4,947 nucleotides of DNA, from the IMG/VR virus record IMGVR_UViG_2547132273_000019; one strand, written 5' to 3'. Source of the DNA: a virus. Its lineage: Duplodnaviria; Heunggongvirae; Uroviricota; Caudoviricetes. The notes beneath the pieces were generated by a model, which saw only the letters and a program-made list of their open reading frames with translations, had not been told where the DNA came from and did not search any database. Positions within the stretch are counted from its first letter, which is position 1, and each line of letters begins with the position of its first letter. Shown one piece after another: positions 1-4,947 of this stretch. The position numbers and the translations under genes are program-made.

Positions 1-83
1 ATCCATGCTGACCTCATTTCCCCTTAACGCTGGGGTAGCGGAACTGTTTGCTGAGAACACCGTGCGGTGTGTTGATGCAAATA

Positions 84-112
84 AGATTAGCCATGGCTAA
101 CATATAGGTCAA
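84..112 (-). promoter_or_regulatory. Leftward sigma70-like promoter (P_L analogue) with an operator palindrome in its spacer
   Basis: Read on the minus strand: -35 TTGACC (plus 107-112), 17-nt spacer, -10 TAATCT (plus 84-89). The perfect 14-bp palindrome TTAGCCATGGCTAA (87-100) overlaps the spacer and -10. Transcription would run toward position 1. Confidence 0.45.
87..100. promoter_or_regulatory. Operator candidate (O_L-like): perfect palindrome TTAGCCATGGCTAA, form TTAGC-N4-GCTAA
   Basis: Perfect 14-bp palindrome. The same half-sites and 4-bp spacing recur at 583-596 and 633-646 on the other side of the repressor gene. Confidence 0.55.
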
Positions 113-122
113 GTGATTTTGT

Positions 123-138
123 ATGTTATGGCTAACAT
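123..138. promoter_or_regulatory. Second left-side inverted repeat ATGTTA-tggc-TAACAT (auxiliary operator candidate)
   Basis: 6-bp arms ATGTTA/TAACAT. It shares the 11-mer ATGGCTAACAT with 93-103. It lies just upstream of the predicted leftward -35. Confidence 0.35.
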
Positions 139-172
139 GATTGATGTGGTAAAAAATAACTCATTGATGATG

Positions 173-580
173 TTATCTTTTATTTGTCCGCTGACGGGCT
201 TTTAGTAATTCTTCAAAGAGTTTATTGAAGTTTTTTACTCGAGCTCGCATTTCGGCGAGCTGGGTATCCTGTTCTGATTCTGGCAGTGCATTAAACAGCT
301 CAAGGAGCTCTAGTTCTTTGGGGGATAAGGCAACTGGCTTCTCAACAGGTGGTGTTGGTTGCTTGTCTTCATCGCCAAATAGAATCCATGTTGGTGAGCA
401 TTGCAATACTTTGCTGAGGGCAAAAAGGTTCTTCCCTGTAGGTTCACTATCATCCCGTTCCCATTGTGATACAGACACATGGGAGATTTTCAGGGCTTTA
501 GCAAGAGACCTTTGGGTGTGTTTGAGGTTTTTCCGACGATACCTAATGCGTTCGCCGATAGTTAAATTTTTTGTTTCCAT
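173..580 (-). CDS. Phage repressor, XRE-family HTH (CI-like), short form without a LexA/S24-type autocleavage domain
   Basis: 135-aa ORF. N-terminal HTH signature TQRSLAKALKISHVSVSQWERDDSEPTGKNLFALSKVLQCSPTWILFG, then a Pro-rich linker and a ~45-aa helical tail. It is divergent from a cro-like gene and flanked on both sides by palindromic operators. ATG at 580-578, stop TAA at 175-173. Confidence 0.85.
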   Translation of the reverse strand: METKNLTIGERIRYRRKNLKHTQRSLAKALKISHVSVSQWERDDSEPTGKNLFALSKVLQCSPTWILFGDEDKQPTPPVEKPVALSPKELELLELFNALPESEQDTQLAEMRARVKNFNKLFEELLKARQRTNKR

Positions 581-582
581 AG

Positions 583-596
583 TTAGCTAATGCTAA
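583..596. promoter_or_regulatory. Operator candidate (O_R-like): TTAGC-taat-GCTAA
   Basis: 14-bp inverted repeat with the same half-sites and 4-bp spacer as 87-100. It abuts the repressor start codon, so it could serve autoregulation or a P_RM-like promoter. Confidence 0.5.
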
Positions 597-602
597 ATCG
601 TA

Positions 603-631
603 TTGACTATGTTTTTGTTAACATCTATTTT
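603..631 (+). promoter_or_regulatory. Rightward sigma70-like promoter (P_R analogue) for the cro-like operon
   Basis: -35 TTGACT (603-608), 17-nt spacer, -10 TATTTT (626-631). The operator 633-646 covers the predicted transcription start. A Shine-Dalgarno AAGGTG (652-657) sits 6 nt before the ATG at 664. Confidence 0.5.
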
Positions 632-632
632 G

Positions 633-646
633 TTAGTCATAACTAA
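633..646. promoter_or_regulatory. Operator candidate (O_R-like): TTAGT-cata-ACTAA, within the longer inverted repeat TTGTTAGT-cata-ACTAACAA (630-649)
   Basis: 8-bp arms over a 20-bp span. The core matches the TTAGY-N4-RCTAA pattern of 87-100 and 583-596. It overlaps the predicted P_R start site. Confidence 0.5.
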
Positions 647-663
647 CAATAAAGGTGTTTTAA

Positions 664-894
664 ATGCTTAAAACTGACGCTCTTTTGTATTTCGGTTCAA
701 AAACAAAACTTGCACAAGCAGCAGGTATTCGTTTGGCTTCGCTTTATAGCTGGAAAGGGGATTTAGTTCCCGAAGGTCGCGCGATGCGTCTACAGGAGGC
801 ATCTGGCGGGGAGCTTCAGTATGATCCCAAAGTTTATGATGAATATCGTAAGACGAAGCGGGCGGGGCGGTTGAACAATGAAAATCACTCCTGA
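664..894 (+). CDS. Cro/YdaS-family HTH DNA-binding protein (Cro analogue)
   Basis: 76 aa. Motif YFGSKTKLAQAAGIRLASLYSWKGDLVPEGRAMRLQEASGGELQYD is typical of Cro/YdaS-type HTH proteins. It is the first gene of the rightward operon, divergent from the repressor, with a good Shine-Dalgarno sequence. Confidence 0.8.
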   Translation: MLKTDALLYFGSKTKLAQAAGIRLASLYSWKGDLVPEGRAMRLQEASGGELQYDPKVYDEYRKTKRAGRLNNENHS

Positions 895-1399
895 ACAGGC
901 TCGTGAGGCTCTGGATGCCTGGATATGTCGACCAGGAATGACACAGGAGCAGGCGACGATATTAATCACTGAAGCATTCTGGGCTTTGAAAGAGCGCCCG
1001 AACATCGATGTTCAGCGTGTCACAGATGAAGGTGGCGCGGTTGATCAGCGAGCGCTTGGCGTTAATCGAGTGAAGATATTCGAACGCTGGAAGGCTATCG
1101 ACACCAGGGATAAGCGTGAAAAGTTCAGGGCGCTAGTGCCTGCGATTATGGAGGCTATCCGGATTAGTGATTTCAGGTTGTATCGTGAGATCAGTGATGG
1201 AAAAAGTATTACGTACATGATCGCCGGGTTAAATAAAGAATATGGCGATGTGGTGGAATCCGGACTGCTTTTTGCAGATCCTGCCGTTGTAGATCGTGAA
1301 ACTGACGAACTTATAGAAAAAGCAATTGCTTTCAAGCTTGCGTATCGACAGCAATACCAACAAAAAGCTGGATGGAATTATGAGTCTTCTTTTTGCTGA
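878..1399 (+). CDS. YdaT-like early regulatory protein (CII-position analogue); function tentative
   Basis: 173-aa ORF. Its start overlaps the cro-like stop by 17 nt (ATG 878, upstream stop 892-894), suggesting translational coupling. It occupies the position of cII/ydaT in Rac-like prophages. The family assignment is from recollection of YdaT-like features (MKI start, IFERW, ALVPAI) and was not searched. Confidence 0.55.
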   Translation: MKITPEQAREALDAWICRPGMTQEQATILITEAFWALKERPNIDVQRVTDEGGAVDQRALGVNRVKIFERWKAIDTRDKREKFRALVPAIMEAIRISDFRLYREISDGKSITYMIAGLNKEYGDVVESGLLFADPAVVDRETDELIEKAIAFKLAYRQQYQQKAGWNYESSFC

Positions 1400-2345
1400 A
1401 CGCCCACTGGTTATAAACACGCAGCTGGCAATGAAAATTGGCTTAAACGAAGCCATTGTTTTGCAACAACTGCACTACTGGTTGAGAGATACCAACTCCG
1501 GCATGGAATGTGATGGTGTTCGCTGGATTTACAACACAACGGAACAATGGCTGGAACAGTTCCCATTCTGGTCAGAGTCAACGTTAAAGCGCGCGTTTGC
1601 AAGTCTGAAAACGCTGGGGCTTTTGCGTTGTGAAAAGCTCAATAAATCAAAGCGCGATATGACCAATTTCTACACGATTAACTATGGGAGCGAGCTTTTA
1701 GATGATGGCAAATTGAGCGAATCCATCGGTTCAAAATGCGCCGCTCCATCAGGTCAAAATGACACGATGGAAGAGGTCAAAATGAAACGCTCCATTGGTT
1801 CAAAACGACCCAATGTCATCGGGTCAAAATGGCCCGATGATCCTACAGAGAATACAACAGAGATTACTACAGAGAATAAAAACACTTTTCGTCCGGAAGC
1901 TTCGCAACCGGACCCGCAGACGGCTGAACAGGATTTTTTAATCCGGCACCCTGGCGCAGTTGTGTTTAGTGCGAAAAAACGCCAGTGGGGTAGCCAGGAG
2001 GATCTGGCGTGTGCGCAGTGGATATGGGGGCGGATCGTGGGTCTCTACGAACAGGCCGCCAGTGATGATGGCGAGATCATGCGACCAAAAGAGCCTAACT
2101 GGACTGTCTGGGCCAATGATGTGCGCACAATGCGGATGCTGGATGGCAGAAGCCACAGACAAATTTGCGAAATGTTTGGTCGGGTACAGCGGGATCCATT
2201 CTGGGTAAAAAACATCATGAGCCCGTCAAAACTCCGCGAAAAATGGGACGAACTGGTCATCCGCCTGGGACGTTCACCTGTACAGCGTTGTGTGAATCAT
2301 ATTTCTGAACCGGATACAGAAATTCCGCCTGGTTTCAGAGGATAA
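1380..2345 (+). CDS. Phage replication initiation protein (O-like replisome organiser) containing the origin iterons
   Basis: Long ORF. The N-terminal region (LVINTQLAMKIGLNEAIVLQQLHYWLRD...STLKRAFASLKTLGLLR) looks like a winged-helix origin-binding domain. Five DNA iterons lie in the middle of the gene and a conserved C-terminal domain follows. The ATG at 1380 overlaps the upstream stop (1397-1399). The ORF track extends to a TTG at 1326; the true start is uncertain. Confidence 0.8.
   Translation: MSLLFAERPLVINTQLAMKIGLNEAIVLQQLHYWLRDTNSGMECDGVRWIYNTTEQWLEQFPFWSESTLKRAFASLKTLGLLRCEKLNKSKRDMTNFYTINYGSELLDDGKLSESIGSKCAAPSGQNDTMEEVKMKRSIGSKRPNVIGSKWPDDPTENTTEITTENKNTFRPEASQPDPQTAEQDFLIRHPGAVVFSAKKRQWGSQEDLACAQWIWGRIVGLYEQAASDDGEIMRPKEPNWTVWANDVRTMRMLDGRSHRQICEMFGRVQRDPFWVKNIMSPSKLREKWDELVIRLGRSPVQRCVNHISEPDTEIPPGFRG
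1722..1831. repeat. Origin iterons: five direct repeats, consensus TCCATYGGTYCAAAATG, 23-24 bp period
   Basis: Copies begin at about 1722, 1745, 1768, 1791 and 1815, each with core GGT(T)CAAAA(T/C)G at 1728-1738, 1752-1761, 1775-1784, 1797-1807 and 1822-1831. The period is not a multiple of 3, so each copy is read in a different frame (GSKC, GQND, EVKMK, GSKR, GSKW). That indicates selection at the DNA level. Confidence 0.8.
1840..1890. other. AT-rich tract with short direct repeats (ACAGAGAATA twice) downstream of the iterons; candidate DNA-unwinding element
   Basis: The sequence gatcctacagagaatacaacagagattactacagagaataaaaacacttttc is clearly A+T-richer than the surrounding gene. ACAGAGAATA occurs at 1845-1854 and 1870-1879. 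Confidence 0.5.
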
Positions 2346-2385
2346 GTTTTGATTTCAGGTCATGAGGTAATTTTAAGGGGGACTT

Positions 2386-2787
2386 GTGGCAAAAGTTTTT
2401 ACACAAGAAGAGCGGGAAAAAATTAAAGGGCAGGTGGTGGAACTCGTGCGCCAGAGCGGTCGTGAGACGTTACGGCAACTGGAAGCTAAAACAGGTGCGA
2501 CTAGATATCTGATGAGCGTTCTTGCTAGAGAGCTGGTAGCCAGTGGCGATGTATACAACTCCGGCTACGGGTTATTCCCGTCTGAACAGGCGCGTAAGGA
2601 CTGGCAAAACGCCCGCAAAAAACTCTCGAGGGCAAAGGTGAAGAAACCTGCTGTGGTTGATCCGGACCTTATCTGGTCATTACCTGACGGAGAAATACGC
2701 CGCTACGACAGTCGTCTAAACATAATCTGCCGCGAGTGCCGGAAGAGTGAAGTTATGCAGCGCATACTGGCATTTTATCAGGGATAA
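2386..2787 (+). CDS. Hypothetical phage protein (133 aa), basic, possible winged-helix fold
   Basis: GTG start at 2386 with a strong Shine-Dalgarno AAGGGGG (2375-2381). It lies 40 nt after the replication gene stop and is probably co-transcribed. No recognisable catalytic motif. Stop TAA at 2785-2787. Confidence 0.6.
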   Translation: MAKVFTQEEREKIKGQVVELVRQSGRETLRQLEAKTGATRYLMSVLARELVASGDVYNSGYGLFPSEQARKDWQNARKKLSRAKVKKPAVVDPDLIWSLPDGEIRRYDSRLNIICRECRKSEVMQRILAFYQG

Positions 2788-2884
2788 TGTTAGGTATTTT
2801 AGACGTTACTAGATTAAAAAGCATTAGTTCAGGAGTGAATTGACATTCTCATTTTTCATGGCACAGGGTAGATCTGGCGTGGTT

Positions 2885-2908
2885 GTCCGCTTTGTGCCAA
2901 CAGCGGAC
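2885..2908. repeat. Inverted repeat GTCCGCT-N10-AGCGGAC (hairpin or protein-binding site), copy 1
   Basis: 7-bp perfect arms with a 10-nt spacer (ttgtgccaac). No U-tract follows, so it is not a canonical intrinsic terminator. The same arms and spacing recur at 4587-4609. Confidence 0.5.
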
Positions 2909-3074
2909 GTTACTAACGAAACTGTGAGTTAAAAACGGGAGCTGGTCACCTCCATCCCGCGAAATGGAATTCAAAAATGCCCTCATGTACGGTACTTCTA
3001 CTCTGATGTGAGCATTTTCGTGGATTTTTTCGAGCCACTCCAACGAATGATTACATTCAGTTTCGGGCACTAAA

Positions 3075-3090
3075 ACGTCATAACGTCATA
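3075..3090. repeat. Tandem direct repeat ACGTCATA x2
   Basis: Sequence aacgtcataacgtcata in the 540-bp spacer. Function unknown. Confidence 0.4.
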
Positions 3091-3276
3091 AATCCGCAAG
3101 TTGAGGAGTAGCGATCAGCCAATTGGTTAAAAAACAGCTTTAATTCCCTTTTTCAAGCAGGCTCCTTGTCGCACGTCTGGTGCATCCAATTCATTTCAGT
3201 TACCCTGATGCCATACTGGCACGGACTAGCTCTCTTAATTGGCGCTGGTTTGTTAACCTTGTCCGCTGTCGGGTCT

Positions 3277-3307
3277 TTGTAAGTTGTAATTCCTAAACTA
3301 GCATAAT
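3277..3307 (+). promoter_or_regulatory. Candidate own promoter for the RelA/SpoT-domain gene
   Basis: -35-like TTGTAA (3277-3282), about 19 nt spacer, -10-like CATAAT (3302-3307), then Shine-Dalgarno TAAGG (3315-3319) and ATG 3329. The spacer is slightly long; this is a weak call. Confidence 0.3.
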
Positions 3308-3328
3308 TTTATTATAAGGCCTCTTACT

Positions 3329-4354
3329 ATGCACATTTTATCTGTTTCAAAAAAGGAAGTTGGAAGAGCTGGGGATAGATTAGTTTCTCAGTTTGGTACA
3401 GGTGAAAAATATAAAGAGGAAGATGTACAAATTCTTCATGAGTGGAGGATGTTGCATTTATATCCTTTAAGTAAAATACAATTTTATATGGAAAGAGAGG
3501 CTATTTCCTTAAACAAAAATGCGTTACTATCCTCTAGAATTAAGAGGATGCCTTCCATTGTTACTAAGCTTTCTAGATTTCCTGATATGAAGTTAAATAA
3601 GATGCAGGATCTTGGTGGGTGCCGGGCTATTTTAAATAATCTGGATCAAGTGTATGATTTAGTTAATAAAATAAAATCATCTAAATTCTCACATGAACTA
3701 GTTAGAATGGATGATTACATGATAGACGTGAAAGATTCTGGTTATAGAAGCTTTCATATGGTCTATTCATTCCAAAATAAAAAATTTCCATCTTTAAATG
3801 GGTTGCGCATTGAAATGCAAATAAGAACAGCTATTCAACATAGCTGGGCTACAGCAGTTGAAATGGTTGGTTTGTTTCGAAAGGAATCATTGAAATCTGG
3901 TTTTGGTGATGCAAGATGGCTTAGGTTTTTTGAATTGGTATCAGAGCTTTTTTATAAACTTGAGTATGAAAAAGAACCATCTGGGAGTTATATAAAAATA
4001 TCAGAAGAATTAAGTTATTTATCCGTCGAGTTGAATGTTTTCGATATATTAGCTGCTTACAATGCCGTTGTTAGCCATATTGAGGGTAGCAAAAAATATG
4101 ATAAAGGACTTTGCATAATTGTTGTTGATACCATAAAGCGGAATATAAATATAAAGAGCTTCGAAAATCACAATCATGCGAAGGCGGCAGAAGCTTATGT
4201 CGAGTCTGAAAAATACTGCGCGGAAAATAAAGGCTGTGAAGTGGCTATGGTTTCTGTTAGTTCAATTAGTGAATTAAAAAATGCATATCCTGCTTACTTT
4301 TTAGATACGAAAACTTTTTTAAATTATCTCAGTAGGTATGTTTTTATAAAATAA
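3329..4354 (+). CDS. RelA/SpoT-domain nucleotide pyrophosphokinase (small alarmone synthetase-like) with a C-terminal extension; candidate toxSAS or fused toxin-antitoxin (CapRel-like) defence protein
   Basis: 341 aa. Synthetase-fold motifs in order: RIKRMPSIVTKLSR (R-x-K-x3-S-I-x2-K), QDLGGCRAIL, DDYMIDVKDSGYRSFHMVY (compare NGYQSIHTVV in RelA) and EMQIRTAIQHSWA (compare EIQIRT...H). About 115-150 residues follow the SAS core. Hand counts of sample 60-nt lines give about 23-30% G+C inside the gene against about 53% in the replication gene. Confidence 0.85.
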   Translation: MHILSVSKKEVGRAGDRLVSQFGTGEKYKEEDVQILHEWRMLHLYPLSKIQFYMEREAISLNKNALLSSRIKRMPSIVTKLSRFPDMKLNKMQDLGGCRAILNNLDQVYDLVNKIKSSKFSHELVRMDDYMIDVKDSGYRSFHMVYSFQNKKFPSLNGLRIEMQIRTAIQHSWATAVEMVGLFRKESLKSGFGDARWLRFFELVSELFYKLEYEKEPSGSYIKISEELSYLSVELNVFDILAAYNAVVSHIEGSKKYDKGLCIIVVDTIKRNINIKSFENHNHAKAAEAYVESEKYCAENKGCEVAMVSVSSISELKNAYPAYFLDTKTFLNYLSRYVFIK

Positions 4355-4586
4355 AAAATGTTTTCTGGAGTGGTCTGAATTCTACTAACTTAGTTTTTTC
4401 AGACCGCTTCTGACCACAATGGCCTGTGAGGTTCTGCTGCTAGTCAACATAAAATAACAAAGCCGGCAGGTGGTGGTTGTTGTAAAGTTATTCAATGACA
4501 TTCATGGAGGCTTAAGCGAATTATTTGTCCCTGGTCGGTATGGTGGCAACAGCTTGTTGCGAGAATTTGGCTAATTTGGACTGACT

Positions 4587-4609
4587 TCCGCTCCTTGCTC
4601 AAAGCGGAC
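4587..4609. repeat. Inverted repeat TCCGCT-N10-AGCGGAC, copy 2
   Basis: 6-bp arms plus a trailing C, 10-nt spacer (ccttgctcaa). Same arm sequence and spacing as 2885-2908. The two copies bracket the RelA/SpoT-domain gene. Confidence 0.5.
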
Positions 4610-4721
4610 TAGAAGGTTAGCTTGTGTCGGACTTTGCGTATTAAAAGAAGTGCTGGTGGTGACTAGTGGTTGAGCCCCATTTCCACAGAAAAAATCAGAG
4701 AAACTATACCCAATAGTTGTA

Positions 4722-4750
4722 TTGAATCACTGACGAGACAGCCTCATATT
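4722..4750 (+). promoter_or_regulatory. Candidate sigma70-like promoter upstream of the small ORF
   Basis: -35 TTGAAT (4722-4727), 17-nt spacer, -10 CATATT (4745-4750). A strong Shine-Dalgarno AGGAGG (4776-4781) follows. Confidence 0.3.
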
Positions 4751-4787
4751 CATCAGGACTGGTGTACGTCCAATACAGGAGGTTGTG

Positions 4788-4877
4788 GTGCTGGTTCTCA
4801 AATGTGCGCTGGCTATTACGGCTGTAATGGCGATTTATTGTCTTGCTATTGTTCTTATGGATCGCCTTTCTGACTGA
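4788..4877 (+). CDS. Candidate small hydrophobic membrane peptide (29 aa)
   Basis: GTG at 4788 lies 6 nt after AGGAGG (4776-4781). Hand translation gives (M)LVLKCALAITAVMAIYCLAIVLMDRLSD, a single predicted transmembrane helix with a charged tail; stop TGA at 4875-4877. It overlaps the track's 67-aa ORF (4670-4873) in another frame; which frame is expressed is unresolved. Confidence 0.3.
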   Translation: MLVLKCALAITAVMAIYCLAIVLMDRLSD

Positions 4878-4947
4878 TTTCATATTGGCGAGGTAAAGGT
4901 AGTTAAGTAGAATGGCTGCGGGTGCTTGAGGCTATCTGCCTCGGGCA

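Follow-up and report, generated by a model that had tools for sequence, protein, structure and literature searches.

What is a RelA/SpoT-domain gene doing in the immunity-replication region of a lambdoid prophage? The 4947-bp stretch of DNA analysed here (the window), from IMG/VR record IMGVR_UViG_2547132273_000019, is such a region of an Escherichia coli prophage, as judged from its list of open reading frames (ORFs) and their profile matches, and it carries a 341-residue ORF at 3329-4354. A first-pass annotation, made from the sequence alone, had proposed that this ORF encodes a small alarmone synthetase of the toxic kind (toxSAS) or a fused toxin-antitoxin, carried by the phage for defence or exclusion. 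The ORF and the four RelA/SpoT motifs quoted for it (Table 1) are present exactly as described. We find that its product is a full-length, divergent and architecturally canonical member of the described fused CapRel toxSAS family. By homology, it very probably acts as a single-protein anti-phage abortive-infection system. The slot in which the gene lies, which is bracketed by an inverted pair of short palindromes, is a defence hotspot with a cassette-like organisation.

Assignment to the CapRel family

The RelA/SpoT assignment held in profile searches: Pfam RelA_SpoT (PF04607; gathering score 27) covered residues 69-175 and scored 66.2 bits (E = 4e-18). The only PADLOC model matched by the window protein is PDC-S33 (PDLC04999; E = 5.3e-119, 395.7 bits), with residues 4-338 aligned to positions 6-342 of 349. 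CapRel(SJ46), the CapRel protein of Salmonella phage SJ46, also matches PDC-S33 and nothing else in PADLOC, over its full length (8e-86, 286.6 bits), and we therefore take PDC-S33 to be the PADLOC name for the CapRel family. A match to phrog_4773 was obtained at 4.8e-134. Moreover, when all PDB chains were searched with phmmer, CapRel(SJ46) (7ZTB, 9ERV) was recovered at E = 2.6e-34 in one alignment that joins residues 6-338 to its residues 15-370. Small alarmone synthetases (SAS) of the RelQ/RelP type were recovered at about 1e-10 to 4e-10, over residues 67-177 only. Identity to CapRel(SJ46) is 35% in the N-terminal domain, 25% around the pseudo-zinc-finger domain (pseudo-ZFD) and 32% overall.

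This full-length homology, together with the conserved YxxY motif described below, bears out the suggestion of a fused toxin-antitoxin of the CapRel type. The first-pass annotation had also allowed for 'a divergent or new variant'. Divergent is apt at 32% identity, but new variant was too strong a term for a protein of canonical architecture whose family PADLOC already models as PDC-S33; the window protein is not a new kind of protein. Literature searches for 'PDC-S33' and for the RefSeq accession WP_000547812 returned no paper.

In the toxSYNTH domain, R70 and R99 align with R79 and R116 of CapRel(SJ46), the arginines that coordinate the adenine of ATP, and Y139 aligns with its G-loop tyrosine Y155; R70, R99 and Y139 are invariant across 75 homologues. 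In the A-YxxY motif near the C terminus, P321 is found in all 75 homologues, Y320 in 72 (phenylalanine in the other 3), A319 in 70 and Y323 in 67 (phenylalanine in 8). The importance of R79, R116, Y155 and the A-YxxY motif of CapRel(SJ46) has been shown experimentally (PMC9712102). The toxSYNTH domain is also as basic as that of CapRel(SJ46), with isoelectric points (pI) of 9.7 and 9.6, a composition that would be compatible with RNA binding.

A full-length AlphaFold2 (AF2) model was built on the 75-sequence alignment (predicted local distance difference test score (pLDDT) 88.6; predicted template modelling score (pTM) 0.87). This model places the end of the SAS core near residue 185, after which some 155 residues form a folded C-terminal extension, the region that had been noticed, and left unexplained, at the outset. 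The extension is predicted to contain helices at 195-213, 220-234 and 237-246, strands at 260-267 and 272-278, a helix at 283-299, a strand at 303-310 and C-terminal helices at 313-319 and 328-338, with a short helix at 321-324 on the YPAY motif. This arrangement agrees with the published CapRel anchors, pseudo-ZFD and C-terminal extension. The best PDB matches of the full-length model in Foldseek were 7ZTB/9ERV (E = 3e-20, template modelling (TM) score 0.69, ~350 aligned columns), and the root-mean-square deviation of ~10 Å from them would fit crystal structures in the open state. RelQ/RelP structures aligned with the N-terminal half of the model only.

When residues 185-341 (157 residues) were modelled alone (AF2, pLDDT 83.5), the only significant PDB matches were again the CapRel chains 7ZTB/9ERV (TMq 0.59-0.70, E = 7e-6 to 1e-5); the match ranked after them had E = 0.4. 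The predicted fold of the C-terminal region thus matches only the CapRel antitoxin domain. When this domain alone was searched against representatives clustered at 50% identity, 1332 relatives were obtained; in most of the matches listed, it occupies positions ~185-345 of a protein of 340-400 residues, which is the fused architecture. Sequence variation across the family peaks in this domain, at residues 251-311, where mean pairwise identity is 0.29 versus 0.53 in the toxSYNTH core; the same comparison for the close clade gives 0.51 versus 0.71. Variability of the sensor domain is the reported pattern for the CapRel family (PMC9712102, PMC11578894).

The locus was said to contain no separate antitoxin gene, and this proved correct: nearby small ORFs are neither conserved nor, at 20 residues or more, annotated in any of the gene-carrying genomes examined. 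Two candidates were considered and rejected. A 73-residue minus-strand ORF at 2849-3070 has no family match and spans the cassette breakpoint at 2910, and 38-residue ORFs at 3166-3296 have no family matches either.

Proposed mode of action and alternatives

The mechanism that we propose is drawn from homology to CapRel(SJ46) and CapRel(Ebc) (PMC9712102, PMC11578894, PMC13423816), from which we infer that the protein is toxic and autoinhibited, uses tRNA as its substrate, aborts infection and has a phage trigger. Its basic N-terminal toxSYNTH domain would be an ATP-dependent pyrophosphokinase. In the uninfected cell, the C-terminal domain would be folded back, with A-YPAY (residues 319-323) plugging the adenine pocket between R70 and R99. 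Upon infection, a phage protein or a phage-host complex would bind the hypervariable pseudo-zinc-finger and anchor region and keep the enzyme open. The open enzyme would move pyrophosphate onto the 3' CCA end of tRNAs, blocking aminoacylation and translation, such that no phage would emerge from the infected cell. The gene would be expressed as an autonomous cargo ('moron') of the Qin/DicA-type lambdoid prophage beside rspB, to the benefit of both the lysogen and the prophage.

Several observations weigh against this proposal. The sole characterised relatives are of low identity, above all around the pseudo-ZFD. By sequence, the C-terminal half alone gave a marginal PDB match (E = 0.003) over its last 70 residues only, and the comparison of folds was therefore used. 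Some interface residues that matter for the closed state of CapRel(SJ46), A77, V338, L339 and A341, correspond to S68, A306, M307 and S309, which are similar in size and hydrophobicity but not identical. The anchor-1 helix alpha-9 region of CapRel(SJ46), which binds Gp54 and includes L280, falls in an alignment gap of the window protein. The C-terminal domain carries a net charge of -3 versus +7 in CapRel(SJ46); because one domain is acidic and the other basic, sensing could work differently. The substitutions, the gap and the change of charge might all alter specificity. Upstream of the ORF, no plus-strand site with a 16-18-nt spacer reached 9/12 in a promoter consensus scan, and the sole candidate in a lenient scan is weak (TTGTAA at 3277-3282 and CATAAT at 3302-3307, 9/12, with a 19-nt spacer). 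Finally, none of the sequence features used here distinguishes tRNA-modifying from nucleotide-synthesising toxSAS.

This last point bears on the strongest alternative, a fused toxSAS that makes toxic alarmones ((pp)pApp or (p)ppGpp, as do FaRel or the GRel protein Pag1B of PANGU) and does not pyrophosphorylate tRNA. The catalytic core is common to all RelA/SpoT homologue (RSH) synthetases, and both toxSAS chemistries exist (PMC9712102, PMC11782079, bioRxiv 10.64898/2026.04.06.716658). We nevertheless regard alarmone synthesis as unlikely for the window protein. The substrate of CapRel(SJ46), by far the closest characterised relative in this analysis, is tRNA, and inhibition of translation is the activity described for the CapRel subfamily (PMC9712102). 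No FaRel2, PhRel2 or GRel-type structure was found among the PDB sequence matches at E up to 1. The N-terminal domain is strongly basic, like that of CapRel(SJ46), whereas Pag1B is reported to be without a positive tRNA pocket (bioRxiv 10.64898/2026.04.06.716658). PANGU type I is a two-gene operon of the GRel toxSAS Pag1B and the nucleoid-associated protein (NAP) Pag1A, featuring a DNA-mimicking C-terminal domain (bioRxiv 10.64898/2026.04.06.716658). Assignment to that system was rejected: no gene for a NAP partner is adjacent to the ORF, and its C-terminal domain is predicted to fold as the CapRel antitoxin does.

Less probable still is a selfish or decaying element without a present defence role, be it a prophage stabilisation module or an inactive relic. 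Qin-type prophages are often defective, the equivalent region of the Qin prophage of E. coli K-12 holds a classical relBE toxin-antitoxin pair, and no promoter was identified. However, the catalytic and regulatory residues are all intact, the 341-residue protein recurs unchanged in 3683 indexed blocks of an assembly collection, and copies of the cassette in different strains are 99-100% identical. Because the antitoxin of a fused toxin-antitoxin cannot be degraded separately, classical post-segregational killing would be unavailable to it. In addition, the slot is filled elsewhere with recognised defence genes.

A housekeeping SAS of the RelQ/RelP/YjbM type, in which an ordinary regulatory C-terminal domain would tune the stringent response of the lysogen, is barely credible: the RelA_SpoT domain, the RefSeq name 'RelA/SpoT domain-containing protein' and the label 'GTP pyrophosphokinase yjbM' that one source gives to a homologue are what speak for it, but the protein reaches 57.6 bits in a domain-only match to the NCBIfam YjbM equivalog (NF053588; cut-off 320) and 21.9 for NCBIfam RelA (cut-off 728), its C-terminal fold is found only in CapRel, its YxxY autoinhibition motif is conserved, and the gene is sporadic (41 of 5426 complete E. 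coli genomes), lying, in all copies with an examined context, in a prophage, an integrase-bounded island, a cassette-like array or a plasmid.

Comparison with characterised systems

CapRel(SJ46) (7ZTB, 9ERV; PMC9712102, PMC11578894) and the window protein thus have in common the three catalytic-domain residues, the A-YxxY motif and the PADLOC model, and both are carried by temperate phages of enterobacteria. They differ in that the window protein is 32 residues shorter, lacks the insert 'PSLDGGATNNAIA' found between beta-1 and beta-2 of CapRel(SJ46), and has an acidic sensor domain in place of a basic one. The window gene also lies in a lambdoid prophage, whereas SJ46 is a P1-like phage-plasmid. 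The Enterobacter chengduensis protein CapRel(Ebc) and the Klebsiella pneumoniae protein CapRel(Kp) are of the same family and architecture. Because CapRel(Ebc) is 70% identical to CapRel(SJ46) (PMC9712102), it too is distant from the window protein. These two proteins demonstrate that CapRel homologues with different C-terminal domains counter different phages and are able to sense triggers other than capsid proteins, for example a complex of T7 Gp0.4 with FtsZ (PMC9712102, PMC13423816).

Other RelA/SpoT-fold proteins are more remote. The PhRel/ATphRel module (gp29/gp30) of mycobacteriophage Phrann is, as here, a toxin of this fold encoded on a prophage, and it is described, with reference to earlier work, as excluding superinfecting phages (PMC9712102). 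In a tblastn search, residues 67-259 of the window protein matched Phrann gene 29 (E = 5e-6, 26.5% identity). The bicistronic toxSAS as a group (PhRel/ATphRel, FaRel, FaRel2 and PhRel2) are much more distant and have a separate antitoxin gene; at the window locus there is none, neither a conserved small ORF nor an annotated one adjacent to the gene. RelQ/YjbM and RelP/YwaC have the synthetase fold of residues ~65-185 in common with the window protein, but they are tetramers that make (p)ppGpp and are without the C-terminal antitoxin domain.

CapRel proteins are a leading model of direct phage-protein sensing by bacterial immunity, and triggers are known for only a few of the homologues. What the gene itself adds is incremental: it is a divergent member of a described and mechanistically understood family. 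It nonetheless branches far from the characterised proteins (it is 32% identical, its sensor is both acidic and shortened, and its carrier is a lambdoid prophage), and it is a sensible homologue for probing how far the pseudo-zinc-finger sensor can diversify and which triggers it recognises. The clade with an acidic, shortened sensor might respond to a class of trigger other than those known so far (capsid, Gp54 and Gp0.4-FtsZ).

Distribution of the gene

The cassette is present in 41 complete E. coli genomes, and 80% or more of the entire window was found at a single location in equally many, 41. All five loci examined in detail were in a prophage adjacent to rspB. The window protein is unchanged in many E. 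coli isolates, avian and human strains included. Deposited phage genomes contained no close relative, and the best full-length match among them was SJ46 (28.5% by tblastn). Homologues at 57-97% identity are found in Enterobacterales (including Serratia, Yersinia, Pectobacterium and Klebsiella) and in Aeromonas, those that are ~45% identical in Vibrio and those at 35-40% in many phyla.

No neighbouring gene is common to the five different genomic contexts, namely the rspB prophage, a second prophage, an island, an array and a plasmid. The second prophage, another lambdoid prophage of E. coli, carries a 65%-identical homologue (loci L010-L013, 8001-9017) on the opposite strand, between the Q antiterminator and the holin genes. 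The position between Q and holin is where the Stx toxins lie in Stx phages. A 59%-identical Klebsiella homologue (P0025) belongs to an island bounded by an integrase, where the gene next to it encodes a DndB domain, and the Vibrio homologue is in a run of small co-oriented genes that, judged by gene layout, resembles an integron cassette array. The fifth context is the IncFII conjugative plasmid NZ_CP062917.1 of Raoultella terrigena (locus L139, 4547-6246), which encodes a 98%-identical protein; the genes beside it are pifC and, where pifA would be expected, one for a P-loop NTPase. Homology between this plasmid and the window covers 2884-4571 at 92.6% and begins exactly at the left palindrome described below, and the plasmid contains a further R/L palindrome pair at 7998-8063.

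A hypervariable slot between inverted palindromes

The gene lies in a slot of variable content. In otherwise near-identical prophages, homology to the window is lost at 2910-2912 and regained at 4584-4597, with unrelated genes between; phage PhiR42_1, for example, has a methyltransferase in the slot. These breakpoints coincide with an inverted repeat, I1 (2885-2910 and 4584-4609; 26 nt, 81% complementary), each arm of which is itself palindromic, with a 7-bp stem and a 10-nt loop (GTCCGCT-N10-AGCGGAC). The palindrome pattern occurs twice in the window, against 0 occurrences expected from shuffles. The two 24-nt units are of left (L) and right (R) types (Table 1).

The left unit was found in 120 IMG/VR contigs, and in 60 of these the right boundary followed 0.8-5.9 kb further on. 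The intervening DNA fell into 20 unrelated clusters, the right unit terminating 20 unrelated cargo types. When the cargo was followed from its start after the left unit, at least 40 unrelated clusters were obtained among 113 viral contigs. In longer arrays, the internal unit pairs are ordered R, ~19 nt, L. PADLOC recognised PD-T7-1, AbiH, PDC-S15, PDC-S39 and PDC-S06 among the slot cargos, and the CapRel described here (PDC-S33) in three contigs. PD-T7-1 and AbiH are covered by models of named defence systems, and the PDC entries are PADLOC candidate systems. PADLOC gave no match for 14 of the 20 cargo proteins that were scanned, and 8 of the 10 that were also scanned against Pfam had no Pfam match. 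As to location, then, the idea of a phage-carried defence or exclusion gene is supported: the ORF occupies a lambdoid prophage slot that holds known defence genes elsewhere.

The slot recalls the defence hotspots of P2 and P4 (PMC9122126) in being a fixed phage position between conserved genes with alternative, mostly single-gene anti-phage cargos. Unlike these, it is found in Qin/DicA-type lambdoid prophages, with the DUF977/ren-like gene on one side and hokD on the other, and is bracketed by the inverted 24-nt palindrome pair. Our literature search found no description of a palindrome-bracketed slot or of the palindrome sequence. Similar variable cargo at fixed positions is known from T4-type phages, in which cassettes are bounded by stem-loops ('PeSL' elements).

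One possibility, which we put forward tentatively and hold to be rather doubtful, is that the inverted L and R palindrome pairs are recombination sites of an undescribed cassette-exchange system. As part of the same tentative reading, defence genes might be exchanged for one another, become stacked and pass from lambdoid prophages to F-like plasmids or back. The palindrome pattern (21 specified bases) is, however, present at more than 120 loci when one genome per species is considered (L140-L259). It occurs in other Enterobacterales (Pantoea, Phytobacter, Leclercia, Citrobacter, Mixta and Shimwellia) and is commoner in metagenome-assembled genomes (MAGs) of Xanthobacteraceae, Hyphomicrobiales and Pseudolabrys, in which units are paired 21 nt apart every 0.4-2.7 kb. 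In both the Enterobacterales and the MAGs, the palindromes adjoin ordinary accessory genes and not only prophage hotspots. Because the motif is so widespread beyond prophage hotspots, a repeat similar to repetitive extragenic palindromes or bacterial interspersed mosaic elements (REP/BIME) is a serious alternative to a dedicated cassette site, and the palindrome may be such a repeat that marks module edges by chance. The hotspot is the less expected result of this analysis and perhaps of more consequence than the gene. If cassette exchange does take place there, new anti-phage genes could be picked directly from the slot cargos that match no database entry.

Two other identities were considered for the palindromes and rejected. 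Integron attC sites are defined by RYYYAAC/GTTRRRY core sites together with an IntI integrase and attI. Here, the 24-nt units are followed by R-T-T/C and then variable bases, so that GTTRRRY is matched only occasionally, and the 21-kb prophage loci contain no integron integrase. As RNA hairpins, isolated units are no more stable than shuffles (z scores of -1.3 and -0.7). G.U-compatible variants are found for the left unit on the minus strand only and for the right unit on the plus strand only; these results leave a strand-specific RNA structure unsupported.

In the dicC-hokD region of K-12 Qin (NC_000913.3, 1641000-1650500), flxA, ydfV and the classical relBE pair are found. The palindrome is present there in degenerate form, both between flxA and ydfW and within ydfV. 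The relBE pair may be another cargo of the slot.

Composition and flanking signals of the cassette

The first-pass annotation had described the gene as an AT-rich insertion. The contrast in composition is real, the GC content of the ORF being 32.6% as compared with 46.3% in the left flank (1-2910) and 45.9% in the right flank (4584-4947), but the AT-rich block is the ORF alone and the inserted unit is larger. This unit (~2911-4583) comprises the ORF with 418 bp upstream and 229 bp downstream, parts that have a GC content of 42-43%. Presumably, the gene's own promoter lies within the cassette-specific upstream region. The Shine-Dalgarno sequence attributed to the gene is present at a plausible distance from the start codon, but at only four bases it is weak. 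The 5' leader (3230-3335) folds no better than shuffles (z score of +0.5). When the whole window was searched against Rfam (E up to 1), neither the gene nor its surroundings matched any family, and the single partial match, at the window end, is described below. In comparison with the otherwise identical cassette of strain 104, the sequence AACGTCAT is doubled at 3074-3081, an 8-bp tandem duplication.

Directly 3' of the ORF, a consensus scan found no plus-strand terminator. A stem-loop (inverted repeat I4) begins 5 nt past the stop codon; RNA folding of 4359-4418 gave -27.5 kcal/mol and a z score of -4.1, with none of 200 shuffles equally stable. Because a T-run follows it on the minus strand, it resembles a terminator that would block antisense or convergent transcription into the gene, and from its sequence it looks like a minus-strand terminator protecting the 3' end of the gene. 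A minus-strand promoter-like site (10/12) is present at 4549-4520. A minus-strand small RNA running from this site to the hairpin (4418-4359) was considered and rejected, as the interval folds no better than shuffles (z score of -1.0).

The window and its host prophage

The features of the window are collected in Table 1. In complete genomes, a prophage with the same gene order is integrated adjacent to rspB. On one side, it carries the integrase, xis, exonuclease VIII, ydfD and dicB genes, and on the other hokD, rem, ydfU, the Q antiterminator and the lysis genes, an arrangement that relates it to the Qin element of K-12.

Table 1. Positions of genes, protein features and flanking elements in the 4947-bp window
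Feature	Position	Strand	Details
cI/DicA-like repressor	173-580	-	HTH_3, Phage_CI_repr
P22 Cro/DicC-like gene	664-894		
YdaT/cII-like gene	878-1399		
O-like replication initiator	about 1380-2345		phrog_391
DUF977/'Ren-like' gene	2386-2787		followed by 540 bp to the CapRel-family ORF
Left 24-nt palindromic unit	2885-2908		GTCCGCT-TTGTGCCAAC-AGCGGAC; last conserved element before the cargo; left arm of I1
Cassette-specific upstream region	2911-3328	+	42.8% GC; also present in the plasmid copy
Shine-Dalgarno sequence AAGG, weak but plausible	3316-3319	+	9 nt 5' of the ATG; read from the sequence
CapRel-family fused toxin-antitoxin gene	3329-4354	+	ATG start, intact, 341 codons plus stop codon
N-terminal toxSYNTH (toxin) domain	3329-3898	+	residues 1-190; pI 9.7
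R70; R99; G-loop Y139	3536-3538; 3623-3625; 3743-3745	+	within the toxSYNTH domain
RelA/SpoT motifs	residues 70-83; 93-102; 136-146; 162-174		RIKRMPSIVTKLSR; QDLGGCRAIL; DSGYRSFHMVY; EMQIRTAIQHSWA
C-terminal antitoxin/sensor domain	3899-4351	+	residues 191-341; pI 5.7, acidic
Pseudo-zinc-finger sheet	4106-4258	+	residues 260-310; between the anchor helices and the C-terminal helix
Putative autoinhibitory motif A319-Y320-P321-A322-Y323	4283-4297	+	corresponds to A351 and Y352-x-x-Y355 of CapRel(SJ46)
Stem-loop with T-run	4359-4418; T-run 4358-4345	-	inverted repeat I4
Right 24-nt palindromic unit	4585-4608		TTCCGCT-CCTTGCTCAA-AGCGGAC; inverted copy of the left unit; prophage backbone resumes

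The immunity module (window 1-750) is mosaic: the repressor/cro region is 53-75% identical to that of the strain 104 prophage, which is 98% identical elsewhere. PhiR42_1, which is without the CapRel cassette, is 97.5% identical to window 1-2791, repressor/cro included. From these comparisons of the repressor region, the same CapRel cargo is paired with different immunity types. In its longest reading, the O-like gene starts with a TTG at 1326 and overlaps the YdaT/cII-like gene by 74 bp (1326-1399). The RefSeq start is 54 bp later and gives 321 residues, and the start of the 339-residue ORF is therefore probably too early.

At the right end of the window, the partial Rfam match mentioned above is to the sok antitoxin RNA (4920-4947; 23.5 bits, E = 0.029) and is truncated where the window stops. 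A promoter-like site is present at 4885-4913. In complete genomes, the type I toxin gene hokD lies ~130 bp beyond this end.

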